From NCBI GenBank assembly GCA_947445225.1, contig CANFCX010000001.1, positions 24,189 to 88,188 of the forward strand: a stretch of 64,000 nucleotides of DNA, read 5' to 3'. The position numbers and the translations under genes are program-made. The DNA comes from Rhodospirillales bacterium (GTDB taxonomy: Bacteria > Pseudomonadota > Alphaproteobacteria > CACIAM-22H2). How positions within the stretch are numbered: the first letter of the stretch is position 1; the number at the start of each line of letters is the position of its first letter. Below are positions 1,100-31,770 of this stretch, piece by piece. A model generated the notes under the pieces. The model was not told where the DNA came from, searched no databases, and saw only the letters and a program-made list of their open reading frames with translations.

Positions 1100-1360
1100 C
1101 CTGTCGGTTGCGACCTTTGCGCCCACCATCATTCTGTGTCAAGTATATAACTCCTCCCTCGATGGGGGGAGGGTTGGGTGGGGGTGCCTCCGGAAACGAA
1201 CCTCTTCGCGGCGAAGCCGCAATATTTGTCGGGCTCCGCCCGAGTCCCCCCACCCGGCGCAAATGCGCCGACCGCCCCCCCACAAGGAGGGAGGTTAGCC
1301 ATGTAGGCGGCGGCTAATTTGTCGGGGGTATGGGGGCCTCCCGGCCCCCATGACTTGCCT
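1100..1360. repeat. GC-rich hairpin-dense intergenic block containing one copy of the TGGGGGCC-N4-GGCCCCCA element (1331-1350)
   Basis: Palindromes CTCCTCCCTCgatGGGGGGAGGG, GGTGGGGGTGC...GTCCCCCCACCC, TGGGGGCCTCCCGGCCCCCA read directly in the sequence. Confidence 0.5.
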
Positions 1361-4340: not shown

Positions 4341-5869
<1,529 letters not shown>

Positions 5870-6430: not shown

Positions 6431-6623
6431 AGCAAACTCTCCACAATCTCGGGACCGAAGGCCCCGACCAAGCCCTTGAGAATACAGTAAAATCGGAAGT
6501 GCCGCGAGGACCGCCCGGGAAGCCCTCGCGTGAGGCGCGCGATTGCTAGCATAACCCTGTTGGTGGCGCAACACGGCAAGGCGCCGCAGCCCCCGGTTTT
6601 TCCAGGAACAACGCCGCCGCCTT

Positions 6624-6750
6624 ACCCTCTCCCCACCGGGAGCACCAACTCCCCTCTCCCCACCGGGGAGAGGGAGGGGCCCGCGCCGCTCGGCGCGGGA
6701 GGGTGAGGGAGGAAGTCGCAGGGGCCGTGAGGCCCCTGCACCCCATCCAA
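6624..6750. repeat. GC-rich palindromic intergenic repeats (CCCTCTCCCCACCGGGGAGAGGG type), upstream of atp operon
   Basis: Two tandem copies of CCCTCTCCCCACCGGG plus perfect palindrome CCCTCTCCCCACCGGGGAGAGGGAGGGG read in sequence. Confidence 0.55.
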
Positions 6751-6817: not shown

Positions 6818-7099
6818 ATGCCCCGCGCCGCGCAACGTCAGGATCGGATCAGCCTTCGGCTCAGCCCGCAATCGAAGCGAAAGCTGGAGCGGGCGGCAGC
6901 CTATGCCGATAAGACGGTAACCGATTTCGTGCTCGACAGCGCGCTCAAGACCGCCGACGACATCGTGCGCGAGCAGGAGACGATCACGCTGACTCCCGCG
7001 GAATTTCAGCGCTTCTCCGATGCGCTTCTCAATCCGCCGCCTCTGAATAAGGTGCTGCGGAAAGCGCTCCGGGAACATCGCCGCATTACCGGCACCTAA
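6818..7099 (+). CDS. DUF1778-family (RHH) antitoxin, partner of GNAT toxin (TacA/AtaR-like)
   Basis: 93 aa, ...SLRLSPQSKRKLERAAAYADKTVTDFVLDSAL... typical DUF1778; ATGA overlap with downstream GNAT gene. Confidence 0.8.
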   Translation: MPRAAQRQDRISLRLSPQSKRKLERAAAYADKTVTDFVLDSALKTADDIVREQETITLTPAEFQRFSDALLNPPPLNKVLRKALREHRRITGT

Positions 7100-7602
7100 T
7101 GATCGCGACGGGTTCGGTTCGCACCGAGCCGCTGTCGCCGCACCATGAGCGCGATACTTTTGCCTGCGGTGAAGCGGCGCTCGATCGCTACCTGCGGACG
7201 CAGGCCGGTCAGGACGATCGTCGGCGCGTGTCCCGCGTCTTCGTCGCGGTCGAGGCGGGCTTTTCTCGGGTCATCGGCTTCCATGCCCTCAGCGCGACGG
7301 CGATCGACGCGAGGAGTTTCCCCGCGGAGATCGCCCGCCGCTTGCCGAAATATCCCGTTCCAGTGGCGTTGCTCGGGCGCCTCGCCGTCGATCTCGCCTG
7401 GCAGGGGCGCGGGCTCGGCGACTTCCTCGTCGCCGATGCCGTCCGGCGCGTGGCGAGCGTCGGCGAACATGTCGCCATTCATTCCATTGTCGTCGAAGCC
7501 ATGAGTGAGAAGGCGCGTGCCTTCTACGAGCGTTTCGGGTTCCGGCCATTGACCGACGATGGCCGGCGCCTCTTCCTGCTCCTGACGCCAGGCACTGCCT
7601 GA
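7099..7602 (+). CDS. GNAT-family acetyltransferase toxin (TacT/AtaT/KacT-like)
   Basis: 167 aa with HERDTFACGEAALDRYL... and acetyl-CoA motif WQGRGLG; classic gene order antitoxin-toxin. Confidence 0.8.
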   Translation: MIATGSVRTEPLSPHHERDTFACGEAALDRYLRTQAGQDDRRRVSRVFVAVEAGFSRVIGFHALSATAIDARSFPAEIARRLPKYPVPVALLGRLAVDLAWQGRGLGDFLVADAVRRVASVGEHVAIHSIVVEAMSEKARAFYERFGFRPLTDDGRRLFLLLTPGTA

Positions 7603-7659: not shown

Positions 7660-7892
7660 TGATGCGGCACTTTTCGGGAGGTTCCGGCCGGTCGGCTTTT
7701 GTGGCATATTGCAATGCACTTTGCCAATTTGCATGGGTATTTTCCGCAAAATGCGATGCACAATGAAAGTGTGCTCTGCGGCATAAAATTATCTTATTGA
7801 AAAACAACAATAATTTAGGACGCCGACTTTCGTATAGTTTGGCACGGCGCATGCAGCCCTACTTTAGTAGCGTGCGACAAGGAGTATTTCTA
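7660..7892 (+). promoter_or_regulatory. AT-rich putative promoter/operator region upstream of LuxR-type regulator; contains two TGCRATGCAC boxes
   Basis: GC drops sharply; TTGCAATGCAC and AATGCGATGCAC about 40 nt apart; AGGAG SD 8 nt upstream of ATG at 7893. Confidence 0.3.
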
Positions 7893-8525
7893 ATGAAGCT
7901 TTTGCTCATCCACCCGGCGACCGCGACCCGCTCGGTTCTGTCCCATGCCCTCGGCAAGATGTGGCGCGAGGCCGTGGTGGCCGAACGCGATACCGCCGGG
8001 CCGGCGCCGGGCGTCGACGAGCCGGGCATGATCGTCGTCGATGGTGCGTTGTGCGCTGACATGAACGCCGCCGATCTTCGCCTGTTGTGCCGCGCAGCCG
8101 CAGCCGCGCCCGTGGTCTTGCTCTCGACTTTCGTGGATTTGCCCGGCGTCATCGCCGCTTTCGACCGCGGCATGGCCGGCGTGGTGCCCAAATCCCTTTC
8201 GGTGGCCGCCATGGTTCAGGCGCTGCGCCTGATCGCCTCGGGTGAACGTTTCGTCCCGGCCTCCGTGCTCGCCGCCGTGCGCCCGATGGGCGGTGACCGC
8301 GGCGGGGAGACGCCCACGCTCGATCGCCTCACCCCGCGCGAACGCGAGGTACTCGGCCTGCTGCTCGAAGGCGGCTCGAACAAGGCCATCGGCCGCACCC
8401 TCAGCCTGACCGAAGCCACGGTCAAAGCCTACATGATGACGTTGTGCCGGAAACTCGGCGCGCGCAATCGCGCCCACGCCGTCCGCATCGCCGTCCAAAA
8501 CGGCTTCGCCGCCGCCGCGGCCTGA
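7893..8525 (+). CDS. LuxR/FixJ-family transcriptional regulator with atypical receiver-like N-domain
   Basis: C-terminal LuxR HTH (LTPREREVLGLLLEGGSNKAIGRTLSLTEATVKAYMMTLCRKLGARNRAHAV); N-terminus MKLLLIHPATATRSV lacks canonical acidic pocket. Confidence 0.8.
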   Translation: MKLLLIHPATATRSVLSHALGKMWREAVVAERDTAGPAPGVDEPGMIVVDGALCADMNAADLRLLCRAAAAAPVVLLSTFVDLPGVIAAFDRGMAGVVPKSLSVAAMVQALRLIASGERFVPASVLAAVRPMGGDRGGETPTLDRLTPREREVLGLLLEGGSNKAIGRTLSLTEATVKAYMMTLCRKLGARNRAHAVRIAVQNGFAAAAA

Positions 8526-8632
8526 AGTCGCCGGGGCCGCGAGCCCCACACACAAATTTCCCGTTAGGGCGCGGAGGCACCTCATACCCATCGAGCGATC
8601 GAGGGTGTGAGGGCCTCCCCCCTCGCCTCCAC
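8526..8632. repeat. GC-rich intergenic element between convergent luxR-like gene and priA
   Basis: GAGGGTGTGAGGGCCTCCCCCCTCGCCTCC hairpin-rich segment, related to GGGGGCC family. Confidence 0.4.
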
Positions 8633-10888
8633 CTACATGAAGCTGTAGGGGTCAACGTCGACCTCGATCTTCACACCGGGTTTGATCTTGGTCGAATCCA
8701 GCCATTGGCGCAGGATTGCCTGGAGATTCGCGGCCTTGCCGGTTTTGAGCAGGAGCCGGAAGCGGTGGCGGCCGCGCAGCAGCGATAGCGGGGCGGCGGC
8801 CGGGCCGAGCACCCTGACGCCTTCGATCCGCGGCGCGTTGCGGGCGAGCGCGCGCGCGCCCGCTTCCGCCTCATCCGCCGCAGGCGCCGACACCACGATC
8901 GCCGCCAGCCGGCCGAAGGGCGGGAGCAGGCGGTCGCGCCGGTCCTCTGCCTCGCTCGCCATGAAGCGGTCGCGGGCGCCCGCCGCCAGCGCCTGCGTCA
9001 CCGGGTGTTGCGGCAGATAGGTCTGGAGATAGACCCGGCCCGGGTGTTCGGCTCGGCCGGCCCGCCCCGCCACCTGGTGAAGAAGCTGGAAGGTCCGTTC
9101 CGCCGCGCGCAGATCGCCGCCGGCCAGCCCCAAATCCGCATCGACCACCCCGACCGTGGTGAGCAGCGGGAAATGATGGCCCTTCGCCATCACCTGGGTG
9201 CCGACCAGGATGTCGATCTCGCGCGCCTGCATCCGATCGACCAGGGCCTCGGCCTCGCGCGGGCCGGTCACGGTATCGCTGGTCATGATCGCGATGCGGG
9301 CCTGGGGCCAGGCCGCGGCGGCTTCCTCGGCCACCCGCTCCACGCCGGGGCCGCAGGCGATCAGGCTGTCCTCGGCCTGACAATGCGGGCAGAGGCGCGG
9401 CAGGGGTTGGCTTTCCCCACAATGATGACAGGCCAGCCGCCCGGCCGCGCGGTGTTCCACCAGCCAGGCCGCGCAGTTGGCGCAGCGCATCCGATGGCCG
9501 CAGCCCCGGCACAAGGTCAGCGGCGCATAGCCGCGGCGGTTGAGGAACAACATCGCCTGCTCTCCGCGCTCCAGCGATTGCGTGACCGCCGTCCGCAGGA
9601 CCGGGGACAGCCAGTGCCGGCGCGGCGGCGGATGGCGGCGCAGATCGACGATCGTCACTTGCGGCATTTGCGCCCCGCCATGGCGATCGGTCAGCACCAG
9701 CCGCGTGTACCGCCCGTCCTCGACATTGGTCAGCGTCTCCAGCGACGGCGTCGCCGAGGCCAACACCGCCGGGATCGCCGCCAACCGCGCCCGCACCACC
9801 GCCATGTCGCGGGCGTGGTAGATGACGCCCTCCTCCTGCTTGAAGGCGGCCTCGTGTTCTTCGTCCACGACGATGACACCCAGCGCCGCCAGCGGCAGGA
9901 ACAGGGCCGAACGCGCGCCCACCGCCACGCGGGCATGGCCGGCGGCGATGGCGTGCCAGGTCGCCCGCCGCACCGCCGGCGTCAGGTCCGAATGCCAGAC
10001 CGCCGGATCGGCACCGAAGCGGCGGCGGAACCGCTCCAGCCATTGCGCCGACAGCGCGATTTCCGGCAGCAGGACCAAGGCCTGCCGCCCCCGCCGCAGC
10101 GCCTCGGCGATCGCCTCGAAATACACCTCGGTCTTACCCGAGCCGGTCACGCCATCGAGCAGCGTCACCGAAAACCCGCCATCGCCCACCCGCCGCCGCA
10201 GCGCCGCCGCCGCCTCTTCCTGCGCGGGCGACAGGGACGGCGCCAGCGGCAAGCCGTCGGCGCCCGTTGGCCCCCACACCGGCGCCGCCGGTTCCAGCGG
10301 CGTGGCCTCGATCAGCCCGGCCTCGACCATGCCTTGGACAACCGCGCCGCTCACCCCGGCGGCCTTGGCTAGCGCGGGCGACGGCCACGGGCCGGGTTGG
10401 CTCAGCCTCACCAATACCCGCTGCCGCGCCGGCGGCAGCCGCGCGCCCGCGGGCGGGGGCACAACCAGCCGGTAGACCAAGCGCGGGGCCGGCGGGTGCA
10501 GGATCGTGGCGGTGTTGATCGCCATGCGCAGCACCTTGCCGCGCGGCGTCAGCGTGTAGGCGGCGACCCAATCGATCAGCCGGCACAGATCGGCGGGCAG
10601 CGGCGGCAGGTCGAGCTTTTCGATGACCGGCTTAAGACGCGCGCCGTCCACCGGCTCTGAATCCGGGGTCGCGGGCGCCCACACCACGCCGATTCCGCGG
10701 GTTTTGCCCAACGGCACGGCGACGATGTCGCCCGGATTCAGTGCCATCCCTTTGGCTGATGGATCGTCGGTCCCGGGAAGCGGAAGATAGTCGAAAGCCC
10801 GGTCCACCGGCACCGGCAGCAACACCGCCACGCGATGGGTCGATGCGCGCGATCCGTCGGGGGGCGAAGTGGCGCGGGCGGCAGGCAT
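8633..10888 (-). CDS. priA: Primosomal protein N' (replication restart helicase PriA)
   Basis: 751 aa; Walker A GVTGSGKT, Cys4 zinc motifs CRGCGHRMRCANC...CHHCG...CPHC typical of PriA. Confidence 0.93.
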   Translation of the reverse strand: MPAARATSPPDGSRASTHRVAVLLPVPVDRAFDYLPLPGTDDPSAKGMALNPGDIVAVPLGKTRGIGVVWAPATPDSEPVDGARLKPVIEKLDLPPLPADLCRLIDWVAAYTLTPRGKVLRMAINTATILHPPAPRLVYRLVVPPPAGARLPPARQRVLVRLSQPGPWPSPALAKAAGVSGAVVQGMVEAGLIEATPLEPAAPVWGPTGADGLPLAPSLSPAQEEAAAALRRRVGDGGFSVTLLDGVTGSGKTEVYFEAIAEALRRGRQALVLLPEIALSAQWLERFRRRFGADPAVWHSDLTPAVRRATWHAIAAGHARVAVGARSALFLPLAALGVIVVDEEHEAAFKQEEGVIYHARDMAVVRARLAAIPAVLASATPSLETLTNVEDGRYTRLVLTDRHGGAQMPQVTIVDLRRHPPPRRHWLSPVLRTAVTQSLERGEQAMLFLNRRGYAPLTLCRGCGHRMRCANCAAWLVEHRAAGRLACHHCGESQPLPRLCPHCQAEDSLIACGPGVERVAEEAAAAWPQARIAIMTSDTVTGPREAEALVDRMQAREIDILVGTQVMAKGHHFPLLTTVGVVDADLGLAGGDLRAAERTFQLLHQVAGRAGRAEHPGRVYLQTYLPQHPVTQALAAGARDRFMASEAEDRRDRLLPPFGRLAAIVVSAPAADEAEAGARALARNAPRIEGVRVLGPAAAPLSLLRGRHRFRLLLKTGKAANLQAILRQWLDSTKIKPGVKIEVDVDPYSFM

Positions 10889-10976: not shown

Positions 10977-11702
10977 ATGGCCAGCGATCCCGAAAAGATA
11001 ACCAAGGCCCCGACCGCCGTGGACATGGCCGCCGCCGATGTCGCGGTCTATCTGCGCCGGCACCCGGATTTCCTGGACAAAAACCCCGAGATTCTGGCCG
11101 CGATGCTGCCGCCCACGCGGCGCGACGGCGACGGTGTGGTCGATTTCCAGCGCGTCATGGTCGAAAAGCTGCGCGCCGAGGTCGATCGACTGCGTTCGGC
11201 CGAATACGAGCTGGTCTCGCTCGGCCGCAGCAACATGCACCATCAGGGCCGCGTCCATGCCGCCGCGCTCGCGCTGCTGGGCTCCACCACGCTCGAACAC
11301 CTGATCGAACTTATCGGCACCGATCTCGCCGTCGACCTGGACGTGGACGCCGCCACCTTGTGTTTTGAGGCGCCGCCCAATGCCGGCCCCGACGGCGTTG
11401 CCTGCCGGGGCCTGCGCCTGGTCCCGCGCGGCGCGGTCGAACGCCTGCTCGATGGCGGCAAATCCATTGTCCTGCTCGCAGACGAAACCGGCGACAGGGA
11501 TTTGTTCGGCGAGGCCGCCAGCCTGGTCCGTTCGCAGGCCCTGATCCGCATCGAACCGCGGAGGGGCGCACCCTTCGGCATCCTGGCGCTGGGCAGCCGA
11601 CAGCCCGAAAAATTCCACCCCGGCCAGGGAACCGAGCTGCTCGCCTTCCTCGGCCGCGTCGCCGAGCATTGCATCCGGTCATGGTTGGACCGCGCGACCT
11701 GA
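10977..11702 (+). CDS. DUF484-family protein (commonly upstream of xerC)
   Basis: 241 aa; VAVYLRRHPDFLDKNPEIL motif; 3' end overlaps xerC. Confidence 0.75.
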   Translation: MASDPEKITKAPTAVDMAAADVAVYLRRHPDFLDKNPEILAAMLPPTRRDGDGVVDFQRVMVEKLRAEVDRLRSAEYELVSLGRSNMHHQGRVHAAALALLGSTTLEHLIELIGTDLAVDLDVDAATLCFEAPPNAGPDGVACRGLRLVPRGAVERLLDGGKSIVLLADETGDRDLFGEAASLVRSQALIRIEPRRGAPFGILALGSRQPEKFHPGQGTELLAFLGRVAEHCIRSWLDRAT

Positions 11703-12646
11703 GCGAATTCCTTCCCAACCCCGAAACCGCGGACGCGGTCGCCGGCTGGCTCGAATGGCTGGCGACGGAACGCCGCGCCTCCCGCCACACACTGGCCGCC
11801 TATCGCCACGACCTGCTCGCCTTCCTCGGCTTCATGGGTGGACATCTGGGCAGCGCCCCGACCCCGGCCGATCTGGCGCTTCTCCGCACCGGCGATTTCC
11901 GCGCCTTCCTCGCCCGCCGCGCCGGCAACGGCCTGACCGCCGCAACCAATGCCCGCGCGCTGTCGGTCCTGCGTTCGTTTTTTCGCTGGCTCGACCGCAA
12001 CGGCCGCGGGAAATGCGCCGGCCTCGCTGGCCTGCGTTCACCCAAGCTGCCGCGATCGGTGCCGCGCCCGCTGACCGTTGACGACGCACGCAACGCGGTC
12101 GATCAGGTCGGCGATCTCAGCGACGAACCATGGGTGGGTTTACGCGATACCGCATTGCTTTGCCTGCTCTATGGATGTGGCCTGCGTATCGACGAGGCGT
12201 TGTCGCTGAACCGCCGCGACATCGCGCCCCTGCTCCAGGGCAGCGACAGCCTGATCGTGCTCGGCAAGGGCCGCAAGCAGCGCATGGTCCCGGTTCTGCC
12301 CGCCGTGCGTGAGGCGCTGGCCGCCTATCTCGCTGTCTGCCCCCACGCCGCGGGCGTCACCGCGCCAGTGTTCTTCGGCATGCGCGGGAAACGCCTGCAC
12401 GCCGGCATCGTGCAGAAACGCGTGCGGGAGCTGCGCGGCCTCATCGGCTTGCCCGACCGGGCGACACCGCACGCACTCCGCCACAGCTTCGCCACCCATC
12501 TGCTCGCCGCCGGCGGCGATCTGCGCGCCATTCAGGAATTGCTCGGCCACGCCTCGCTGTCGACGACCCAGCGCTACACCGAAATCGACGAAACCCAATT
12601 GCTCGCCGTGTACGATAAGGCGCATCCGCGGGCCCGTCGGGCTTAG
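11669..12646 (+). CDS. xerC: Tyrosine recombinase XerC
   Basis: 325 aa; C-terminal LRHSFATHLLAAGGDLRAIQELLGHASLSTTQRYTEID catalytic region; exact start (11669 vs 11681) uncertain. Confidence 0.9.
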   Translation: MHPVMVGPRDLSEFLPNPETADAVAGWLEWLATERRASRHTLAAYRHDLLAFLGFMGGHLGSAPTPADLALLRTGDFRAFLARRAGNGLTAATNARALSVLRSFFRWLDRNGRGKCAGLAGLRSPKLPRSVPRPLTVDDARNAVDQVGDLSDEPWVGLRDTALLCLLYGCGLRIDEALSLNRRDIAPLLQGSDSLIVLGKGRKQRMVPVLPAVREALAAYLAVCPHAAGVTAPVFFGMRGKRLHAGIVQKRVRELRGLIGLPDRATPHALRHSFATHLLAAGGDLRAIQELLGHASLSTTQRYTEIDETQLLAVYDKAHPRARRA

Positions 12647-12845
12647 CCCGACGGGGTTGGAATCAGCAAGGCGTAGTAGGGGTAGAAATGTGGGGGCCGG
12701 GAGGCCCCCACACCCCCGATAGTTTGGTGGAGTTCCCGCGCCCCAGGTTCAGGTCGGTGTGGGGGCCTCCCCGTCGGGAGAAGCCCGACCGGAATCCGGA
12801 GTCAAGCCGGCTTCGCCGGCAGGGCCCCCACGACTTCTTACTTCC
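12647..12845. repeat. Intergenic repeat block: TGGGGGCCGGGAGGCCCCCACACCCCCGATA hairpin plus ~65-nt MITE-like unit shared with 31684-31770
   Basis: 12691-12720 and 12769-12831 read directly; near-identical unit GTGGGGGCC..CGGGNGAAGCCCGAC..CGCCGGCAGGG..CCCCCAC at 31684-31770. Confidence 0.6.
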
Positions 12846-15800
12846 CTAATTCCCCTGCGCGCGCTGGCCCGGCGGCGTCGCGGCGCGCGGACCGAGGGTT
12901 GCCGGCGCGGGGATGAAATCGCGGAACAGGATTTCGTCGGTGACGGTCCACGGTTGGCCGGCGGGATTGAGATAGAAGCGCCGCATTTCTTCCAGGTTGA
13001 ACGGGCGCGAGCCGATGCGGCCGAGAACGGCGATTTGACCGCCGGTTTCATCCACGCCGCGGTCGCGGTCCAGCCCCTTGGACAGGGACAGGGCCGGCCA
13101 TGAGGTCGGCGCCCAGGCGATCAGCTCGGGTTTGGGCTCGGGGCTGAAGCCGTAGAAATTCGGCTGTTTGTCGGGCGCGGTTAGGTGGACGACCTTGAGC
13201 CCGTTCACGCCGTCGGCGACATAGGCGTAAGCGGTGGCGTTGGTGGTGCCGACGATCACGTCGTGCGCGTCGTTGATCCGGCCTTCGGCGTTGTACATCA
13301 TGTACATGAAGGGCTTTTCGGGATTTTCGACGTCGACGATCGCCAGCCCCTGTTTTTTCGCGCCGACATAGGCATAGGTGCGGGCGACATAGACGCGCTG
13401 CGGATCGTCCATCGGCACGGACGCACCCTCGACCAGGCGCGGTTTGTCGGGATGGGTTACGTCCACGACCTTGAGCCCGGTGCGGTCGGTCACGAACAGA
13501 TAGCGGAATTGCAGGGCAGAGGCGCGCGCGTCGTCGAGCTTCACAACCGCCTCCAGCTTGGGCTTCAGCGGATTGTCCATGTTGAGCACAACGATGCCGG
13601 CATCGGCGGCGACGTAGAAATAATACCCGGCGATGGTCAGGTGGCGTGCGCCCTTGAGGATGTTGTTTTCGTTCCAGGTGACCGCGCGCGTCAGGAAATT
13701 GTTGCGCGGCTCGCCATCGGCCAGCGTGTTGACGTCGGTCGCGATCAAGCCTTCTTCGGAGTCGGTGATGAAGGCGTAGTTGTAGATCGGGTGGAAGGGC
13801 TGCTCCTGATTGGTCACGCGCATCAGGTCGCCCTTGTTGCGGTCGGGATGGATGGGCTGGCTGGTGGGCAACACGACGCAGGTCGCGTTTTTCGAGGCGA
13901 TATGCGTGTCTTGGCCGAACAGGGAGAACGGCGCGCTGATGATGCGCTGCGACACGCTTTTGTTGGCGATGCTGGCGGTGTCATAGACACGCATCCCGCC
14001 CTTGCCTTCGGCGACAAACAGATATTCGCCGCGCAGTTGGAGGCACGACGCCGGGCCGCCGGCGGAATGGGTGAAGGCTCCGAAAGCCGCCGAGTTGGGC
14101 AGCCGCCGGCCGCGCGCTTCGTGTTCGGCGTAAAAATCGGGGTAGGCGTATTTGTGCAGATAACTGCCGATGACCGCCTGCGGCTCTTCGATTTCGGTCA
14201 CCTGCACGGCTTCGATACCGCCGGCGCCGCCGACCCAGGCGTTGTAGCCGACGAAATTGATGAAGTTGGTCCCTTGCAGCAGAAGCTGGGCCATGATCGC
14301 GTTGTTGTCGTTGGCTTGCGACAAATGGCAATCGGTGCAGGTCTTGGTCTCGGTCTTGCGCTCCGTATGCGGATAATGCGGGGCGAAGGCCTGGCTCGAA
14401 TAACCCGATGCGGCGATCGGCGGCTGCTGGATATAGATGCGGTCGCGGTTGATGTTCTGCGACGAAAGCACCAGCGCCGAGGTCGAGCGAATCGGCGCGA
14501 TGATGCCGTTGCGAACCGGCCCGTGGCGGCCGAGCTGGAAGATTTCGTCGCGGGCGACCTGCGGGTTGTACGTGGCGAAGTTGCGGCTTTCGGTGTCTTC
14601 GTAGTGGTGCCGCGGCGTCTTGCGATTGGCCTGGATCGGCAGATGGCAGCCGCCGCAACTGGTCGACCACGACAAATGGCAGGTGAAACACGCCATCTCG
14701 TCGTCGGGATGGGCGAGGTTTTCCTCCCCGATGCCGGGGCCCCATTTCATCGACAGATCCTTGGACATCAGCTTCGCCCGCGCCGCCTTGGCGTTGTATT
14801 GCGGGCTGCTGGGATCGACGCTGTCCTTGACCAGGCTCATTTCCCATTCCAGGCCCGGCCACACCGACGAACGCTGAAACAGCTTGTTGTCGCGCCATTC
14901 GAACCGGGGACGGCCGTCGCTAAGGCGCTTCAAGGCCAAATCGCGCCCGCCCGGCGGCGCCGCCGGGCCGCTGGTGAGCAGCGTCGGATACGCCCTCGCC
15001 GTGCCGTGGCAATCGGCGCATTGGATTTCGATGGCCGCGGCGACCTCGCCGACGATATGGCCGTTGTTGTGTGCGTCCTGCGAGAAATGGCAATCGACGC
15101 ATTGCATGCCGACGTCGACATGGATCGACGACATGTGGACGGCCTTGCTGAATTTGTCCTTGTCGTCATTGGCGACTTGTTTGCCCGCCGCATCCAGCAG
15201 ATTGCCCTTGCGGTCGCGCTTGAAGATGGCGCGGAAGTTCCAGCCATGGCCGTGATAATCGGCGAATTGCGTGTCCTTGAGCGTCGGGTTGAGTTCCGCC
15301 ACCTTCCTGAGGAATTCGGCGTCGCCCCATTTGCCGCGGATGGCGGCTTCTTCGGGGTTGCGCATCAGGATGGCGTGTTCTTCCTCGGTGGTCGGATATT
15401 TCTGCTTCGCCGGCCACATCGCCTGGGCATCGGATTCATAGTCCCACATCGTGAAGCCGAGCATCGAGTTGAGGAAGATGTTCGGCTGATGCATGTGGCA
15501 GATCATGCATTGGCTGGTCGGGATGGCGTTGGTGAATTCGTGTTTGATCGGGTGCCCGGATTCACCCTTGCGGATGGTGGGATCGGCGGTCTGGGTCGTG
15601 CCGGTGCTGCCGAATTTGGCGTAGGGCCCGGAATGGCGGGGGTCGCGGTCGTTGGCGTAAACGACGTGGCAGGACGAACAGCCGGAATGGCGGAAATCGC
15701 CAGGCTGATCGTTGGTGCCCATCATCCACAAAAAGGGATCGTTCAGGCGTGTCTTGGTGATGTTGATCGCGGGCACGGCGATGCGCAAACCGGTGGCGGG

Positions 15801-16793
15801 CCCGCGGTTGGATTGCCGGATGTCGGGTCGTCCCGGCTCTTCCAGCCGCTGCAAAGCGCCGAGCGAATTGGGCAAGCCGATTTCGGGGAATTGGGTGCCG
15901 ATGTTGCGGCCGCCGCGCTCGAAAATGCGGAAGATGTCCCCCGGGGGGATGACCTCCCAGGCGGGCAGCGGCACCAGCTCGGGCAGGATGCCGCGTTTTT
16001 TCATCGCCTCGGTGGGCGCGACCGGAGCCTTCAGCGAGGCCGGCTGCCCATCGCGGGTATAGCCTTCGCCCAGGATGTAATTCTTGAACGGCAGGATTCC
16101 GTTGTTGTAGGAGGCGCCGCCCCACAACATCGCGCCGGTCGCCATCAGGCTGCGTTCGACCGCCTGAATGGTAAGCATGTGGCAGGCGCCGCAGGCCTCG
16201 CGCGCCACGCGCAGATCGCCGGGGTTGATGAAGCGCACATATTCCGGCGCTTCCTTGATGATCAGGGTGTAGGTCCGTTCCTGATTGGCGCTCGACGGGT
16301 AATGCCAGGTTTCGGGAAAACGCGGCAACACATGGGCGCCGTCCATCGCCGCCCGGTAAGCGGGCTCGTAGACCGGGGCGTGATGTTCTTCGGCATGGGC
16401 GGATTCGGTCGGCTTGATGACGATATGGGCGCCGGGCTTATAGCCGGCGAGCGGGTCCGGTTCATGGCTCGTGTCGGGGGCGTGCGCGGCCGCCTGGTCG
16501 CCGCCGGGCCCATGGCTGCCGGCCGGACGAACCACGGTGGGGTTGCCCCCGTGGCAATCGGCGCAGCCGATATTGAGGGCCGAGTTCTGATGCATGTTGG
16601 GTTGGTCGGTCGCGGTATGGCAGGTCAGACAGCCCGCGCTTTTGGCGTCGGCTTGGGCCTTGGTCTGCCCGGCCGGAGCGGGCGGCGTGAACGCGTATTT
16701 GATGTCACGCGGCTTTTCACCCTCGGCGGCAAAAACCGCGACGGCGACGCCGGAAGCCAACAGGATGCCACAGAATATCCGCCACCCGCGCAT
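12846..16793 (-). CDS. Secreted decahaem c-type cytochrome fused to C-terminal LVIVD-repeat beta-propeller (1315 aa)
   Basis: Signal peptide; ten CxxCH motifs (CLTCH, CADCH, CGACH, CSSCH, CMICH, CVDCH, CADCH, CFTCH, CGGCH, CTDCH) in first ~830 aa; C-terminal repeats LKVVDVTHPDKP / LAIVDVENPEKP / LKVVHLTAPDKQ typical of LVIVD repeats. Confidence 0.85.
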   Translation of the reverse strand: MRGWRIFCGILLASGVAVAVFAAEGEKPRDIKYAFTPPAPAGQTKAQADAKSAGCLTCHTATDQPNMHQNSALNIGCADCHGGNPTVVRPAGSHGPGGDQAAAHAPDTSHEPDPLAGYKPGAHIVIKPTESAHAEEHHAPVYEPAYRAAMDGAHVLPRFPETWHYPSSANQERTYTLIIKEAPEYVRFINPGDLRVAREACGACHMLTIQAVERSLMATGAMLWGGASYNNGILPFKNYILGEGYTRDGQPASLKAPVAPTEAMKKRGILPELVPLPAWEVIPPGDIFRIFERGGRNIGTQFPEIGLPNSLGALQRLEEPGRPDIRQSNRGPATGLRIAVPAINITKTRLNDPFLWMMGTNDQPGDFRHSGCSSCHVVYANDRDPRHSGPYAKFGSTGTTQTADPTIRKGESGHPIKHEFTNAIPTSQCMICHMHQPNIFLNSMLGFTMWDYESDAQAMWPAKQKYPTTEEEHAILMRNPEEAAIRGKWGDAEFLRKVAELNPTLKDTQFADYHGHGWNFRAIFKRDRKGNLLDAAGKQVANDDKDKFSKAVHMSSIHVDVGMQCVDCHFSQDAHNNGHIVGEVAAAIEIQCADCHGTARAYPTLLTSGPAAPPGGRDLALKRLSDGRPRFEWRDNKLFQRSSVWPGLEWEMSLVKDSVDPSSPQYNAKAARAKLMSKDLSMKWGPGIGEENLAHPDDEMACFTCHLSWSTSCGGCHLPIQANRKTPRHHYEDTESRNFATYNPQVARDEIFQLGRHGPVRNGIIAPIRSTSALVLSSQNINRDRIYIQQPPIAASGYSSQAFAPHYPHTERKTETKTCTDCHLSQANDNNAIMAQLLLQGTNFINFVGYNAWVGGAGGIEAVQVTEIEEPQAVIGSYLHKYAYPDFYAEHEARGRRLPNSAAFGAFTHSAGGPASCLQLRGEYLFVAEGKGGMRVYDTASIANKSVSQRIISAPFSLFGQDTHIASKNATCVVLPTSQPIHPDRNKGDLMRVTNQEQPFHPIYNYAFITDSEEGLIATDVNTLADGEPRNNFLTRAVTWNENNILKGARHLTIAGYYFYVAADAGIVVLNMDNPLKPKLEAVVKLDDARASALQFRYLFVTDRTGLKVVDVTHPDKPRLVEGASVPMDDPQRVYVARTYAYVGAKKQGLAIVDVENPEKPFMYMMYNAEGRINDAHDVIVGTTNATAYAYVADGVNGLKVVHLTAPDKQPNFYGFSPEPKPELIAWAPTSWPALSLSKGLDRDRGVDETGGQIAVLGRIGSRPFNLEEMRRFYLNPAGQPWTVTDEILFRDFIPAPATLGPRAATPPGQRAQGN

Positions 16794-16801
16794 CGGCTAC
16801 C

Positions 16802-18688
16802 TCAATAAGTCAGGATCAGATTGGCCAGGACGGAATAAAAGAGGTCCTGGCTGCGGCTGGTTTCGTACAGATCGCGCAGCCCGTCGCTCGGCACCAAGAC
16901 CGCGCCGGACAGCCGGAACACGATGTTCTGCATGAACAGAGGCCGGTAGATCGCGGCGACCGAAAGGTCATAACCGATGTCGTGATGGATGTCGGCCTGG
17001 TTGCGGAGGAATTCGAGCGAGGAGGTATCCATGAATTCCAGCTTGTTGAAATTCGTGGACAGCCGCAGTTCCGGGGTCACGTCCATGTCGGTGCCGAAGC
17101 CGAGCAGCCGGATGCCGGGATTGTTGAAATTGGATTGCCCGATTTCCTTCGACGGGCGCAGCGACGGCAACACGCCGTTGCGGGGCGAAAGGGCGACACC
17201 GCCGCCGCCGATGAAGGGGATCGACTGGCGTATCCAATAGCTGGTGTCGGCGCCGGCGAATTGCGGGTTCTCGAAGATGGCGTCGAAACCCTCTTCCCGG
17301 TTGTCGAAGGGGTCCTTGTCGCCGCTGGCGACCAAAGCGGAGGCGCGCACGCGGATCCAGTCGAAATCGATGGAAGGCTCGATCGCGGCGAAATAGGCGC
17401 GAATGTCCGACTTATCGATTCCGCTGAACTGGTTATGATCGTCGGTGCCAAAGGCGTAATAGGCCGAGCCGGTCAGGTTGAGCCGGCCGAAATGCCCGTC
17501 GCCGTTGAGGCCGAGATAGTGGACATCGTATTTGCGCGGCCGCTGGTCGCCGATCGTGGCCGGGCGCTGCAGGAAGAAGTTCTTGTCGTAGTAGAAATCC
17601 TCGCTCTCGTCGTTGACGTTGTACATATACGTCGCCTGCGAGGTGAAGCCGACCACCGGGAAATCCTGCGCATAGACATTGGCAATATAGATATCGTCCT
17701 TGCGCAGCGGCTGGCCGATGTCGTTGAGGCCGCTATTGGTGTCCTTTTCCAGCCGGCGGAACCAGGCCAGATTGTATTGATAGAGGTTGTTCGAGCGGTT
17801 GCCGAACAGTCGCGCGCCCAACTGAATGTCCTGGAACACGAAGCCGCGGAAATCCGAGGAAAACGGCTGGATGCCGATGCGGATCGAATCGAAATCGTAA
17901 CGGTCCGACACGTTGCGTAGGTGATAGTCGATGAAGCCTTCCTGGAAGGCGATCATGTTGTCGGAGCGCACGGTGCCCTGGTTGGGGTCGGCGAACAGCA
18001 CGCCGCGTTCCTCGACCTCCGCGCGGTTGTATTGAATGACCGGCGTGATGCGGAATTCGTAATCGGGCGGGCGGTAGGCGGTGTCGCCCTTGATCAGCGA
18101 GGCGCTCAAGATCACGGTCTCGACGAACACGTTTTGGTTGGTGTCGCCGAACAGATCGACGGAGTTGGCGCGCCGCGTGGTCGAAATGCCCACCGGAATC
18201 GGCGTGCGCCGCGGCTCGTAGACCGTGTCCGAAATCGCGCTGAGGTTGATGAACCAATCGTCCCACAGCGGGCGGTCGCCTTTGAGCGTGTTCTGGTTGT
18301 ACGGGTCCCACCAGCGTTCGTTGACGCCGATCGCCTCGATCAGGCGCCAGCGATCCGGGATCGGGATGAATTCGCGCGGCAACACCGGCGACGGCGGCGG
18401 CACGGCACCGGGATCGGTGATCGGAGCCACGCGCGGCGGCGCGGGCGGCGGCGCGCCGGGCCGCCGCTGATCCTGGGCGACGATGGGCGCGACGGCGCCG
18501 GGTTGGGGAATTCCGAAATTGCCAGGGCTTCTCCCCGCCGGGGCGAGGAGAGGCGATTCCTCCTTGCCGGCCCAGGCCGGAACGGGAAGGCTCACCGCCG
18601 CCAGGGCCAAAATAAGGGGCAGCGAAGCCAATCCCGAAAGTCCGACCGTCTTTGTCCGCCGGCGCATCCTAGATGACCCCGCACACAT
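16802..18688 (-). CDS. Outer-membrane beta-barrel protein (porin-like, ~620 aa)
   Basis: Signal peptide MRRRTKTVGLSGLASLPLILALAAVSLPVPAWA (ATG at 18667 probably the true start); alternating amphipathic strands; C-terminal ...LANLILTY aromatic terminus typical of OMPs. Confidence 0.7.
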   Translation of the reverse strand: MCAGSSRMRRRTKTVGLSGLASLPLILALAAVSLPVPAWAGKEESPLLAPAGRSPGNFGIPQPGAVAPIVAQDQRRPGAPPPAPPRVAPITDPGAVPPPSPVLPREFIPIPDRWRLIEAIGVNERWWDPYNQNTLKGDRPLWDDWFINLSAISDTVYEPRRTPIPVGISTTRRANSVDLFGDTNQNVFVETVILSASLIKGDTAYRPPDYEFRITPVIQYNRAEVEERGVLFADPNQGTVRSDNMIAFQEGFIDYHLRNVSDRYDFDSIRIGIQPFSSDFRGFVFQDIQLGARLFGNRSNNLYQYNLAWFRRLEKDTNSGLNDIGQPLRKDDIYIANVYAQDFPVVGFTSQATYMYNVNDESEDFYYDKNFFLQRPATIGDQRPRKYDVHYLGLNGDGHFGRLNLTGSAYYAFGTDDHNQFSGIDKSDIRAYFAAIEPSIDFDWIRVRASALVASGDKDPFDNREEGFDAIFENPQFAGADTSYWIRQSIPFIGGGGVALSPRNGVLPSLRPSKEIGQSNFNNPGIRLLGFGTDMDVTPELRLSTNFNKLEFMDTSSLEFLRNQADIHHDIGYDLSVAAIYRPLFMQNIVFRLSGAVLVPSDGLRDLYETSRSQDLFYSVLANLILTY

Positions 18689-20558
18689 TCTGCGCCTTGG
18701 TAATGCCCAGGAAGGGGGTGAACGGGCAACTGACGTAACGCAGCCGAGTGCCGCGCGGGGACAGGTTGTCCGACCGCACGGCCGGGCGCGCGTTGCTCAA
18801 TCCGTTGCCCTTGCCGCCATGATAGAGGCCAAGCGCGGCGATCATGTCGTCCTGGTCGATGCCATCGCCCGAAACGCCGACGCCGCCGACCAACACGCCG
18901 TTGCGGTAGATCGGCACGCCGCCGGCGAATATCTGGATGCCGTTGGCCAGCCGGTTGGACCCGCCGGCCGCGGCGACCGCTGCCAGCCCGGTGCAGCCAG
19001 CGGCGTTGGTGGCGTTGCCGGGGTTGGTCAGGTGATTGGCGATGTCGGTGGAGACGAGGTCGAGCTGCAGCCCGGTGCTGAACGGGCTCCATTGCTGAAA
19101 GGGACGGCTCAACGGCCCCACCGACTGGCCATCGACGCCATCGGGGAAATAGGGGCGCGCGATGTTGCCGATGGCGCGAGCGCTATACGCGATGCCGTCG
19201 GCGAAAGCGGTCGGCCCGATCAAGGACCGTGCCTGGGCAATGTAATCGACGGCCAGCGCCAGCGCGGTGATTTCCGCGCCCGCGGTCGTCCGCGAGAAAA
19301 ACACGGCGGTTCGGCCTTTTTGCAGTGACACGTCGGTGCCGAAGACGGGCGCATCGGGGGTACGCACCAAACCCAGGACCAGGCCATTGGTGTCGACCAC
19401 ACTGATGGTGACCTGGGCGTAGCTGCCCAGCGGGCGCCGGATTTGCGCACGCGCCAGAAGCGCCACATCGAGGGCATGGCGCAGGATGGAGTTGACCTCG
19501 GCGGCGGTCAGCACATTGGCCGCGCCACCCACCACGGTGGCGGCGTCGCCACCGGCGGTCGGCGGAAAACGGTTGGCGCCGGCCGCGTTTTCCAACACGA
19601 AGGCGCGGCCGTTGTTGAAGACGCCGCCCGGATCGGGGATGTAGCCCGAACCCGCCGCGCCGAAAACCTGACCGGCGATGACGGCGGCGTTGGCATAACC
19701 GGCGACCGCGACCAGCGCCCCACCGGCGGGCGGGAAAGCCGGGGCCGAGCTGGGGTTGCTGCGGAAATCGGCCGGCGTGGCGTCCGAATAGCGGAGCGTG
19801 CGACCACCGGCGGTGATGCGGTTGGCGCGAATGTCGATGGGCGCGTCGAAGCCGTTGGTCCCGGCCAGCGCGATGACCTCGTCGGGATCGACGTCGCGAT
19901 TGATGATGTCGAGATCCAGGCTGTAGACACCATCGGAGATGGCGCCGACGCCGCCGACGACCCGGCCGTTCTTGTACAAGGGGAAGCCGCCGGTATCGGC
20001 GGACAACCCGGCAGGCGAACGTTTGGGGCCGCGCGTGGCCACGCCGGGGAATTGCAGGTTCAGGTCCGAACACGGCAATTGGCTGAATTGAACGCCGAAC
20101 AGCGGGCCGCCGGGCTGTTGTTTTTCGCCGACGTTGAAATGTTCCTGGACGATCTGGCTGGCCACCCGGGTGGAAAACGCGTTGCCGGCGGACGACAGAT
20201 AAGCGCCGGTGACCGCCTTGGCGATGGCCAAGAGGGTATCGGTATTGGCGATGGCGGCGCCTTCGAGGCCGGTGGCGACACCGCGCCCGGAACTGACCGT
20301 GATCGTCGTTGCGGCGCCGGTCATGCGGAAGACGCCGAGCACGTTGCCGACGCGATCGACGACGGCGATGGTGGCCAACCGGCCGCGCGCCGTGGCCTCC
20401 GTCACCGCCTGCGAAATCACCACGCCGACATCGGCGACCGTGAGGTTCTGCGCGCGCGCCGGAGCGGCGGACAGGGCGGTAAGACCGGCTAGACCCAGCA
20501 GGACCGCGAGAACCCGCCGCGCGACATAGTTCCCGGTCATGGCGGTCCTCGCGGTCAT
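18669..20558 (-). CDS. Secreted protein with two tandem GlcG/HbpS-like (DUF336, haem-binding/degrading-type) domains
   Basis: Signal peptide; motifs RLATIAVVDRVGNVLGVFRMTGA and QVTISVVDTNGLVLGLVRTPDAPVFGTDVSLQKGRTAVFFS, plus GGVGVSGDGIDQDDMIAALG typical of GlcG family. Confidence 0.7.
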   Translation of the reverse strand: MTARTAMTGNYVARRVLAVLLGLAGLTALSAAPARAQNLTVADVGVVISQAVTEATARGRLATIAVVDRVGNVLGVFRMTGAATTITVSSGRGVATGLEGAAIANTDTLLAIAKAVTGAYLSSAGNAFSTRVASQIVQEHFNVGEKQQPGGPLFGVQFSQLPCSDLNLQFPGVATRGPKRSPAGLSADTGGFPLYKNGRVVGGVGAISDGVYSLDLDIINRDVDPDEVIALAGTNGFDAPIDIRANRITAGGRTLRYSDATPADFRSNPSSAPAFPPAGGALVAVAGYANAAVIAGQVFGAAGSGYIPDPGGVFNNGRAFVLENAAGANRFPPTAGGDAATVVGGAANVLTAAEVNSILRHALDVALLARAQIRRPLGSYAQVTISVVDTNGLVLGLVRTPDAPVFGTDVSLQKGRTAVFFSRTTAGAEITALALAVDYIAQARSLIGPTAFADGIAYSARAIGNIARPYFPDGVDGQSVGPLSRPFQQWSPFSTGLQLDLVSTDIANHLTNPGNATNAAGCTGLAAVAAAGGSNRLANGIQIFAGGVPIYRNGVLVGGVGVSGDGIDQDDMIAALGLYHGGKGNGLSNARPAVRSDNLSPRGTRLRYVSCPFTPFLGITKAQNVCGVI

Positions 20559-21025
20559 TGCGCGATACCCACCCGGAACACGCCGAATTTGAAGCTGTCG
20601 GCCGTGCGATAGGCAACGATCACGTTAAAAGGGAATTCCTGGCCGGTGAGGTCTTCCTTCAACACCTTGAAGACGAGCCGGTTGCCGACGGGCTGGATGC
20701 GATTGTCGATCAGATGGTCGGTGTCGCCGTCCCAGCGCACCCAATAGCCGAGATTGCTGCGCTGCAGCAGCAAATTTCCCCAGGGTTTGGCGATGACATA
20801 GGTGGCGAGCGGCTGATCGCCGTGCAGATCGATTTCGCGGATGATCTCGGCGGCCTCCGGGCGAATGGCGATCGGCGCCAGCATCGCACCTTCAACGCTC
20901 AACGCCTCGCCCCGGCCGGACGCCGGGGCCAGCAACGCCAACGCCATGAAAAAAAAGGTAAATCCAAATCTGGACGGACCGGCTTTCGGTCGTGTTCCAC
21001 TTGGATCGTGCGCCAACAGCGCCAT
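20555..21025 (-). CDS. Small secreted hypothetical protein (~156 aa)
   Basis: In-frame ATG (MALLAHDPSG...) downstream of cytochrome stop; hydrophobic FGFTFFFMALALLAPASG signal-like segment; 4-nt overlap with next gene. Confidence 0.5.
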   Translation of the reverse strand: MALLAHDPSGTRPKAGPSRFGFTFFFMALALLAPASGRGEALSVEGAMLAPIAIRPEAAEIIREIDLHGDQPLATYVIAKPWGNLLLQRSNLGYWVRWDGDTDHLIDNRIQPVGNRLVFKVLKEDLTGQEFPFNVIVAYRTADSFKFGVFRVGIAQ

Positions 21026-29117: not shown

Positions 29118-29122
29118 CAGTA

Positions 29123-29156
29123 ATGGGGGCCGCAGGCCCCCACCCCCGATAATTGT
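29123..29156. repeat. ATGGGGGCCGCAGGCCCCCACCCCCGATA hairpin element (same family as 1331-1350, 12691-12720, 31741-31770)
   Basis: Read directly in the intergenic gap between convergent genes. Confidence 0.55.
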
Positions 29157-31295: not shown

Positions 31296-31342
31296 CGGAT
31301 AATCCCCCTGCGCCGATTATAGGTGTGTTGCCGGGAAAACGC

Positions 31343-31714: not shown

Positions 31715-31770
31715 CTCAGGAATCGGCCGGTTTCGCCGGCAGGGAGGCCCCCACGCCCCCAATAAATCCC
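31684..31770. repeat. ~85-nt MITE-like GC-rich repeat, near-identical to 12769-12831 plus terminal GGCCCCCACGCCCCCAATA hairpin
   Basis: GTGGGGGCCCGTCGGGCGAAGCCCGAC...GGCCGGTTTCGCCGGCAGGGAGGCCCCCAC aligned by eye with the 12769-12831 copy. Confidence 0.6.

Follow-up and report, generated by a model that had tools for sequence, protein, structure and literature searches.

What kind of element fills positions 12647-12845 of the 64,000-nt stretch analysed here (hereafter, the window; contig CANFCX010000001.1 of a Rhodospirillales bacterium, positions 24,189 to 88,188)? These positions are the entire space between a convergent xerC-like gene (11669-12646, plus strand) and the gene for a 1315-aa multihaem/LVIVD protein (12846-16793, minus strand). 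A first-pass annotation had noticed a long GC-rich repeat unit there, with a second copy elsewhere in the window, and proposed either a mobile miniature element or a terminator family of the repetitive extragenic palindromic (REP) type. We found a repeat family that is real, far beyond chance. It is probably a family of REP-like elements arranged in mosaics like those of bacterial interspersed mosaic elements (BIMEs), untagged and with a nested composite form, in an uncultured freshwater Rhodospirillaceae-like alphaproteobacterium. No published account of it was found, and its kind (REP/BIME-like) is already known.

The basic unit is a hairpin of 9-10 bp, (R)TGGGGGCC / GGCCCCCA(Y), with a free loop of 3-4 nt; on its 3' side follows a tail that is conserved and unpaired, R-CCCCC-GAYA. 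Members in the window comprise three intact short hairpins (H1, H2 and H3), two long units (A and B), four decayed members (C, D, E and F) and one solo inner hairpin. The intact short hairpins are as follows.

H1: 1320-1351, minus strand, intact short hairpin, A-TGGGGGCC-GGGA-GGCCCCCA-T with tail A-CCCCC-GACA.

H2: 12690-12721, plus strand, intact short hairpin, G-TGGGGGCC-GGGA-GGCCCCCA-C with tail A-CCCCC-GATA.

H3: 29124-29151, plus strand, intact short hairpin, TGGGGGCC-GCA-GGCCCCCA with tail CCCCC-GATA.

H1 and H3 bear out the earlier remark that the short hairpin also occurs alone. The unlinked H1 and H2 are 97% complementary over 29 nt and have stem, loop and tail in common. A 19-nt pattern of arm and tail has three exact matches in the window. 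The heptamer GGGGGCC is under-represented there (20 copies against 28.7 expected), and 10 of the 20 make up the five hairpin pairs of H1-H3, A and B. With a covariance model (R1) built from 19 copies, H2, H1 and H3 scored 50.5, 47 and 42.4 bits (E from 1e-13 to 3.5e-11), and no other full-length match in the window exceeded 11 bits save the diverged F (17.4 bits, E 0.002). The ninth stem pair, which none of the search patterns forced, covaries among the copies (GC 15, UA 2, AU 1). Short hairpin stems are predicted to fold at -17 to -23 kcal/mol, with H1 at -21 kcal/mol and H2 at -23.1 kcal/mol (z -3.35).

The placement of these hairpins relative to genes is strand-specific. The arm of H1 begins 9 nt past the atpC stop codon (1360-1362) and runs in the same direction as atpC, that of H2 begins 44 nt past the xerC stop, sense to xerC, and H3 stands 6 nt past the stop of a 401-aa PPC-domain gene, where it takes up most of the 39 nt that separate this gene from a convergent gspD-like secretin gene (ending at 29157). 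As the first-pass annotation had observed, all five of H1, H2, H3, A and B lie at gene 3' ends, four of them between convergent genes. Most intact copies begin 6-16 nt past a stop codon or overlap it, in the orientation of the upstream gene. When all outer hairpins of the window are considered, A and B included, seven of eight point along a gene that ends 0-44 nt upstream, F being the exception; orientation was counted with a strict script for open reading frame (ORF) context, plus manual reading for H1 and B. Because this placement is strand-specific, a role at the RNA level can be argued.

The long units and the modules inside them are the following.

A: 12754-12831, minus strand, long unit, outer hairpin an inverted copy of H2.

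Inner module of A: 12772-12822, plus strand, first inner hairpin (hp1) CGTCGGGAGAAGCCCGAC, spacer CGGAATCCGGAGTCAA, second inner hairpin (hp2) GCCGGCTTCGCCGGC(AG).

B: 31685-31764, plus strand, long unit, G-TGGGGGCC ... GGGA-GGCCCCCA-C with tail G-CCCCC-AATA.

Inner module of B: 31694-31741 (48 nt), plus strand, hp1 CGTCGGGCGAAGCCCGAC, spacer TAGCTCAGGAATCG, hp2 GCCGGTTTCGCCGGC, then A.

Alignment of A and B (78% mean column identity, about 60 invariant columns) confirmed the two copies of a long GC-rich unit reported before, with the start of A moved from 12769 to about 12754-12760. The relation of the two repeat sizes had been misread. What was taken for a short hairpin flanking B is B's own outer stem and tail, so that the long unit is nested inside the short hairpin. 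B runs in the order TGGGGGCC, 48 nt, GGGA-GGCCCCCA-CG-CCCCCAATA, and removal of the 48 nt leaves TGGGGGCC-GGGA-GGCCCCCA, which is identical to the hairpin and loop of H1 and H2, with the same tail layout. A comprises a truncated complement of the tail (TCGG--TG), one arm TGGGGGCC at 12760-12767, a loop TCCC and the other arm GGCCCCCA at 12823-12830. As read from these alignments, the long unit is a short hairpin with a quasi-palindromic module of about 48 nt, itself made of two hairpins, in its loop.

The separate short hairpin H2 stands 41 nt upstream of A. The outer part of A at 12756-12771 (tail-complement remnant, arm and loop TCCC) is 100% complementary over 16 nt to H2 at 12699-12714 (loop, 3' arm and start of the tail), that is, an exact inverted copy, and H2 and A therefore form a tail-to-tail dimer with one copy for each convergent gene. 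A itself lies 13-14 nt past the stop (12846-12848, minus strand) of the 1315-aa cytochrome/LVIVD gene. An Mpo1-like ORF precedes B, and a convergent ubiX-like gene lies beyond it. The Mpo1-like ORF (31178-31714) runs into B, so that its last nine or so codons and its stop (31712-31714) are derived from the element (...GARRAKPD*); the Pfam domain of this protein stops at residue 162 of 178.

The inner module consists of hp1 CGTCGGGCGAAGCCCGAC, a spacer of 14-16 nt whose core is of the CTCCGGAG type, and hp2 GCCGGCTTCGCCGGC(A). It is quasi-palindromic because hp1 and hp2 are diverged inverted copies of one unit (loops GAA and TTC), and in its predicted structure it resembles a tiny REP dimer. 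Over five long copies from three independent loci (A, B and the copies in relatives described below) the module is about 90% conserved, while the linkers that join it to the outer stem differ: 0|GGGA in B, 0|GGGC in the B orthologue, GCC|GG in two further copies (L020 and L019) and TCCC|G in A, where the bar marks the module. It was found in both orientations relative to the tail, inverted in A and not in B, and the host loop is split at differing points. RNA folding, as the first-pass annotation had proposed, gave -48 kcal/mol for A (z -3.0) and -46.6 kcal/mol for B; the two strands of the long unit fold equally well (-46 to -48 kcal/mol, z -2.2 to -3.0).

Degenerate members and one free-standing inner hairpin complete the census.

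C: 1176-1255, minus strand, decayed relative of the long unit, GGGTGGGGGGA / CTCGGGCGGAGCCCGAC / AAATATT / GCGGCTTCGCCGC ... CACCCCCACCC.

F: 6718-6748, plus strand, diverged short hairpin, GCAGGGGCC-GTGA-GGCCCCTGC with tail ACCCCATCC, C4 in both arm and tail.

E: 8531-8559, plus strand, decayed short hairpin, CCGGGGCC-GCGA-GCCCCAC then ACACAAATTT.

D: 8598-8625, minus strand, decayed short hairpin, plus-strand sequence ATCGAGGG-TG-TGAGGGCC-TCCC-CCCTCG.

Solo inner-type hairpin: 12633-12655, plus strand, CCCGTCGGGC-TTA-GCCCGACGGG, its stem that of hp1 of the long unit.

C carries GTCGGGCTCCGCCCGAG with one mismatch. E begins about 7 nt past the stop of a GerE-type regulator gene (7797-8525, plus strand) and D 7 nt past the priA stop (8633-8635), so that the two stand tail to tail in the gap between these genes; D has the same G-to-A (C-to-T) change in its tail and in both arms. 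The solo hairpin (-22.7 kcal/mol, z -3.4) carries the xerC stop codon TAG (12644-12646) across its loop and 3' arm. The cluster at 12633-12831 therefore consists of a solo hp1, H2 on the plus strand, a 41-nt spacer and A on the minus strand with its nested module. Palindromic units in alternating orientation together with other motifs, the layout of mosaics of the BIME type or of the Rhizobium-specific intergenic mosaic element (RIME) type, occur here and at 8531-8625 (E plus, D minus), and at 1176-1351 and 6600-6750 family units are mixed with other GC-rich hairpins. Tail-to-tail pairs between convergent genes were seen three times, as H2/A, as E/D and at 8247/8399 of a metagenome contig (L027), each copy of the last pair lying 8-14 nt behind its own convergent gene.

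Two observations concern the surroundings of these units. The GC-rich modules interleaved at 6600-6720 and 1260-1300 include two direct copies of CCCTCTCCCCACCGGG, the hairpins CCCCTCTCCCC-ACC-GGGGAGAGGGAGGGG and CCCGCGCCG-CTC-GGCGCGGG, and CCTCCCTCC / GGGGGGG tracts, and may be a second repeat family. F stands upstream of a TacA-like antitoxin gene (93-aa ORF, 6818-7099; Pfam PF08681, E 4e-24), with an adjacent 167-aa ORF (7099-7602) that possibly encodes the cognate toxin.

To place the long unit, its two-module pattern (24 specified bases) was scanned over 596 Gb of GTDB representative genomes, a set that excludes the source genome. The scan returned only four matches, three of them in the two closest relatives: 'Rhodospirillaceae bacterium Baikal-deep-G46' (GCA_009694125.1; loci L020 and L022/L070) and the metagenome-assembled genome (MAG) MaH-04nov19-121 (locus L019), both 88-95% identical to the window over aligned syntenic blocks. 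The latter (CAMDDQ010000001.1) is labelled Asaia bogorensis; its atp operon has 93-95% nucleotide identity to that of the window, and the label is probably wrong. After these two, XerC identity falls to 65-68% in the nearest homologues, so that the lineage is isolated. Only this lineage (the window and the Baikal and MaH MAGs) yielded the inner hp1/hp2 module. The earlier suspicion that the long unit might exist in just two copies without flanking duplications was borne out in part: it is low-copy and lacks such duplications, but it stands at two loci in a relative.

The older members of the family are kept at orthologous positions. The B orthologue in Baikal-deep-G46 (L070 12352-12445 / L022) encodes the same element-derived C-terminus (...VVGARRAKPD*) and is about 88% identical to B, like the flanking DNA; some of the substitutions break pairs, and the pair-breaking changes include GCCTGC for GCCGGC as well as an outer-stem deletion. 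By this comparison B is old, and the long unit drifts at about the neutral rate. C is 96% conserved (L020 5577-5674), D shows one substitution across the aligned element (L070), F is kept at L070 79-118, E is kept as GGGGGCC-GCT-GGCCCC-AA-CCCAGG, and the solo hairpin is kept at L070 6385, where it spans the xerC stop as in the window. Recent copying or conversion within the window's genome is suggested because the outer hairpins of H1, H2 and A are near-identical, against the 12% drift of old copies.

H2, A and H3 all fall in segments that are missing from Baikal-deep-G46. One such segment, of 8.1 kb (12653-20761), has its left junction exactly at the 3' edge of the solo hairpin and holds the genes for the 1315-aa multihaem/LVIVD protein, a 628-aa ORF and a 629-aa HbpS-like protein. 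This difference is best read as a deletion in the Baikal lineage, because the right junction truncates a small periplasmic-looking ORF there (about 20560-20946, minus strand). The other segment, of 5 kb (26306-31310), has a clean junction and holds a 625-aa ORF, the 401-aa PPC-domain gene, H3 and the gspD-like secretin gene. Downstream of atpC the content of the window differs from that of L020, and the stretch after atpC, with its many family repeats, is a hotspot of rearrangement; in L020, the long unit and the C-type relic are separated by a RelE/ParE-like ORF and a helix-turn-helix antitoxin-like ORF (4922-5564).

The nested anatomy raises the question of how the inner module came to lie in hairpin loops. 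One answer is that this module of about 48 nt is a minimal non-autonomous single-strand mobile element, of the HUH/Y1 type as in palindrome-associated transposable elements (PATEs) derived from IS200/IS605 or in REP doublets forming hairpins (REPINs), which would insert without duplication into the loops of extruded G5CC hairpins and excise precisely to restore the short form. Its architecture fits: as in PATEs, there is a hairpin at either end, there are no terminal inverted repeats and no target-site duplications, and the module always lies inside a loop, at varied loop positions and in both orientations. The exact H1/H2 hairpin and loop recovered from B without its insert, the conservation of the module at three independent loci while linkers vary, and the occurrence of hp1 alone at the xerC stop point the same way, and REPs inside small palindromes are a precedent (PMC3733652). 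Against it stand the number of independent insertions, only three, a left flank that is just a loose 'CC' in these events, as against the fixed tetra- or pentanucleotide 3' of which PATEs insert, and the lack of a transposase, TnpA included, in the sampled sequence. Nor was a filled/empty polymorphism found at a securely orthologous site. The candidate, a long unit in L019 compared with H1 beside atpC in the window, was rejected as an insertion polymorphism, since the L019 copy (which has no tail) is orthologous to the L020 copy on the side of another gene ('gene X') and the region between those sites is rearranged. To our knowledge, 48 nt is also smaller than any characterised PATE or REPIN. 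We regard such a mobile module as possible, though unlikely.

Does the short hairpin occur outside this lineage as well? When JGI metagenomes were scanned for exact matches to hairpin plus tail, 47 loci were returned, of which six (L024, L033, L036, L049, L051 and L064) were excluded, as they lie inside one conserved ORF (...PQYNGSIEAAGGQLKTRA...NRPWGPSAPTPDQ...) that by its appearance looks like an integrase or transposase core. Several organism groups among the remaining loci carry multiple copies, and positions not forced by the search are conserved in them (yrTG / TGGGGGCC / variable loop / GGCCCCCA / CR / CCCCCGA / TAnGG). In the Ga0209919 / Ga0102952-3 group (GC 0.69), the best named matches of IscS are SAR324 cluster bacteria (83% identity), and in the Ga0316187 group (GC 0.60) those of RlmN are Deltaproteobacteria and SAR324 MAGs (66-67%). 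Since marker proteins place the two groups there, the core element is common to an alphaproteobacterial lineage and SAR324-like lineages, with at least 12 contigs carrying copies in the SAR324-like samples. Ten metagenome copies are bounded by called ORFs left and right, and in nine of them the gap to the stop of the sense gene is the smaller one (about 0-61 nt versus 36-175 nt).

Larger arrangements were also observed in the metagenomes. In one SAR324-like contig (L034, 1033-1454), three tandem 191-nt units each consist of the hairpin and tail followed by GATAAAGGGGG, a second small hairpin, and a conserved ATTGGCTACCTTTCG, so that the hairpin of this organism belongs to a larger repeat. In contigs of GC about 0.66 with a proBA/proC neighbourhood (L060 1030-5094, L032 and L028), at least ten variant copies lie within 11 kb, CGGGGGCC-GAAG-GCCCCCG-CA-CCCCCGGGCGGAT; in this variant the closing T-A pair is replaced by C-G, and the copies often follow directly after a canonical terminator of hairpin and T6.

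The tail and the 3' arm tend to vary together. The C-run of the tail equals that of the 3' arm in four variants (CCCTC in D, C4 in F, and C6 in the two SAR324-like variants L066-1749 and L053-7374), while in three others the tail run does not match the arm run. In IMG/VR viral contigs (L004-L018 and L073 onward) we detected 98 distinct TGGGGGCC-N3-4-GGCCCCCA hairpins, with CCCCC at offset 0-2 in 12 of 196 flanks, versus 0 for G5, 1 for A5 and 4 for T5, and C5 at offset 5-7 in only one. C5 beside these viral G5CC hairpins is about 17-fold over the expectation from base composition. Of the viral flanks, 47 are T-rich, i.e., terminator-like.

One may ask whether the G5CC hairpin with its R-CCCCC-GAYA tail is a discrete cross-phylum module rather than just a lineage-specific REP. 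The same strand-specific site within about 15 nt of stops, in the Rhodospirillaceae-like lineage and two SAR324-like lineages, would support this, as would the tendency of the tail to change with the 3' arm and the enrichment of C5 at phage G5CC hairpins; we nevertheless hold it doubtful. If true, it would imply an undescribed trans-acting partner that reads stem and tail together (a copying nuclease or transposase, or an RNA 3'-end or termination factor), and the 48-nt insert would be the smallest known mobile element that targets hairpin loops.

The hairpins could instead have been neither mobile nor copied, each having formed where it now stands, to serve as a factor-independent terminator or to stabilise RNA, with their likeness due to convergent selection for a stable G5CC stem. 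The sense-oriented placement right past stops agrees with this, as do the commonness of G5CC hairpins in unrelated phage contigs (with the C5 run in the flanks just given) and the lack of enrichment of canonical terminators, with 14, 16 and 24 sites of hairpin plus T-run in the window versus 17.3, 18.7 and 18.1 in shuffles. However, unpaired positions under no evident constraint are identical in unlinked copies (the loop GGGA of H1 and H2, the R-CCCCC-GAYA tail, the 16 nt of A and H2), the copies stand together with other repeat modules in mosaic groups, and a U-tract is missing, which makes an origin in place improbable. After the stem follows R-CCCCC-GAYA, and AU-rich bases appear only from 9-10 nt on; a scan for intrinsic terminators does not pick up the family hairpins. 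Since no U-tract follows the stem, a canonical terminator is not supported.

A classical MITE (a miniature transposable element with inverted repeats) of the DDE type, with the outer stem as a 9-bp terminal inverted repeat and the transposase encoded elsewhere, would account for the size of about 75-80 nt, the inverted-repeat ends GTGGGGGCC / GGCCCCCAC and the presence at several loci. Yet no target-site duplication or flanking direct repeat was found at any of the five long copies, where the first-pass annotation had called for such a check, or at the three short ones. The supposed inverted repeat is the stem of free-standing short hairpins that have no interior, the asymmetric tail belongs to the short hairpin and not to a symmetric transposon, and the nine neighbouring ORFs include no transposase; we consider a DDE-type MITE very improbable. 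Of the pair of readings first proposed for the locus, the REP-like one stands (invariant stem, variable loop, conserved tail, post-stop sites, dimers and mosaics), and the MITE and the canonical terminator do not.

Least credible of all is a reading of the long unit as a gene for a structured non-coding RNA or as a cis-regulatory RNA, a three-way junction of about 75 nt with a 9-bp closing stem, given that its stable predicted fold and the copy kept at the orthologous position in Baikal-deep-G46 are set against two strands that fold equally well, an orthologue about 12% different, as in neutral flanks, with pair-breaking changes, a central spacer that is not conserved, copies that overlap coding 3' ends and no Rfam match even at E up to 10. 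Rfam 15 gave no match in the whole window at the gathering score. At E up to 10, only noise was returned for 12600-12900 (best ftsZ-DE, 22.6 bits against a threshold of 72.2 bits) and for five SAR324-like loci. Other candidates were rejected as well. A tRNA-like reading of GGCCCCC-A-CC as a CCA end fails, as ACC is confined to H3, and ACA or ACG stands in most copies; CRISPR, attC sites and uptake sequences were set aside on spacing, consensus and cross-phylum grounds. A literature search with the exact string of arm and tail returned no paper, and a blastn search of H2 against 72,556 plasmids gave no match, possibly because of low-complexity masking.

For the REP-like reading, the short unit has the broad-sense features of REPs: it is a GC-rich imperfect palindrome of 20-40 nt, extragenic and mainly downstream of ORFs. 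Several points weigh against this reading. No unpaired GTAG or CGTC tag was found in the flanks of the 19 copies (in hp1 the CGTC is paired with GACG), and a family without such a tag, by which most REPs in the literature are defined, differs from the REP super-families (PMC3733652). Nothing like a REP-associated tyrosine transposase (RAYT), the Y1 HUH transposase whose single-copy gene the repeats flank in REP/REPIN-RAYT systems, was detected in about 450 kb (the window plus sampled loci) by phmmer with E. coli RayT and a scan of six-frame ORFs for the HUH...Y motif, a search of low sensitivity, and the nine ORFs neighbouring window elements belong to no transposase family, which is a weak test. 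REPs typically number more than 100 copies per genome, and our counts cover the 64-kb window and related loci. No intact short copy was present in about 30 kb of syntenic Baikal-deep-G46 sequence (within a 42-kb search of related loci), and this MAG is the one close representative genome and holds no more than two exact long units. F and the L020 copy both sit in divergent promoter regions, so that F departs from the 3'-end rule, and strand bias is the one line of evidence from which a function at the RNA level is argued.

If the elements are REP-like, the hairpin would be transcribed as part of the 3' untranslated region, where it could serve as a 3'-end structure, either a barrier to 3' exonucleases or a terminator or pause site that is independent of a U-tract. 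Where it lies within 15 nt of the stop, it might also brake the terminating ribosome for that reason. Judged from sequence features, family hairpins probably define mRNA 3' ends in a window where canonical terminators are not enriched. At the DNA level, the family would be renewed by a trans-acting activity, RAYT-like or recombinational, rather than evolving in place, and the inner module may have entered hairpin loops secondarily, in either orientation.

Such a family would add untagged REP-like elements to those described, and would clearly illustrate how one repeat can sit inside the hairpin loop of another. Family elements coincide with rearrangement junctions, as at the edge of the 8.1-kb Baikal deletion, and recode gene C-termini, as in the Mpo1-like gene. 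Repeats of this kind can break MAG assemblies; the atpC-side contig of Baikal-deep-G46 appears to end near family elements, which may be the cause. Were the cross-phylum conservation, sense orientation and co-variation of arm and tail to hold genome-wide, the family would offer a tractable system for the spread of REPs without a RAYT and for the role of the tail.

Several known systems bear a likeness to parts of this family. IS1397 and ISKpn1 insert into the loop of REP sequences, also called palindromic units (PUs), and IS1397 duplicates 3-4 bp, whereas PATEs derived from IS200/IS605 have hairpin ends and no target-site duplication. The hairpin loops of extragenic palindromes would likewise be the insertion targets here, with no duplication; unlike the inner module, these systems are either complete insertion sequences or exceed 100 nt, and their transposases are known. 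E. coli REPs located no more than 15 nt from a stop reportedly stall terminating ribosomes and lower the expression of the upstream gene (work attributed to Liang, Rudd and Deutscher, 2015, Mol Cell). In most intact copies of the present family a stable hairpin similarly starts 6-16 nt past the stop, a likeness known here from sequence alone.

Closer parallels are found among REPs. Those already described are mostly situated downstream of ORFs and pair up as dimers, head to head or tail to tail; they can donate stop codons and have short unpaired tails (PMC3733652), whose role Di Nocera et al. (2013) leave open (PMC3733652). As in the REP/PU and BIME elements of Enterobacteria and Pseudomonas (PMC3733652), we observed GC-rich palindromes, an unpaired conserved end, sites downstream of ORFs and between genes that converge or run the same way, inverted dimers and mosaics, and here too elements supply stop or C-terminal codons (PMC3733652). 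The family departs from the REP super-families in its unpaired end, which is 9-10 nt long (R-CCCCC-GAYA) and not 3-4 nt (PMC3733652), and from REPs in general in having the same core sequence in two phyla.

With REPIN-RAYT systems (PMC3116915, PMC2817692) it shares two inverted hairpin units that form a larger foldable unit, as in the inner module and the H2/A pair, and it would likewise be non-autonomous, vertically inherited and copied within the genome; it differs in that no RAYT was found in the sampled loci, there is no GTAG and no large population of near-identical copies has been seen so far. The alphaproteobacterial REPs CGTC-1 to CGTC-4 (PMC3733652) occur in the same host class, hp1 also starts with CGTC, and no dedicated transposase is known for that super-family. 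The CGTC layout comprises an unpaired CGTC, a stem of 8-9 bp starting with A/T, a loop of 4-5 nt and a CCA tail (PMC3733652). In hp1, by contrast, the CGTC pairs with GACG, the stem is GGGC and the loop GAA, so that the defining layout is missing, and membership of hp1 in the CGTC REPs was ruled out by the family definition (PMC3733652).

The nearest counterparts of the long unit are nested REPs. In Thermomicrobium roseum, GTAG-23 REPs lie inside small GC-rich palindromes, CCGSSCC(n3,4)GGSSCGG, which also occur empty in hundreds of copies, and in H. neapolitanus CGTC-1 dimers lie inside 41-bp palindromes (PMC3733652). Here too a short GC-rich palindrome houses a repeat or repeat dimer in its loop and is also found empty at many further sites. 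The inner module differs from both in being untagged, with its CGTC base-paired, and only about 48 nt long, and the host palindrome differs in its asymmetric tail and strand bias. The nested REPs of T. roseum are a direct precedent for the composite long unit.

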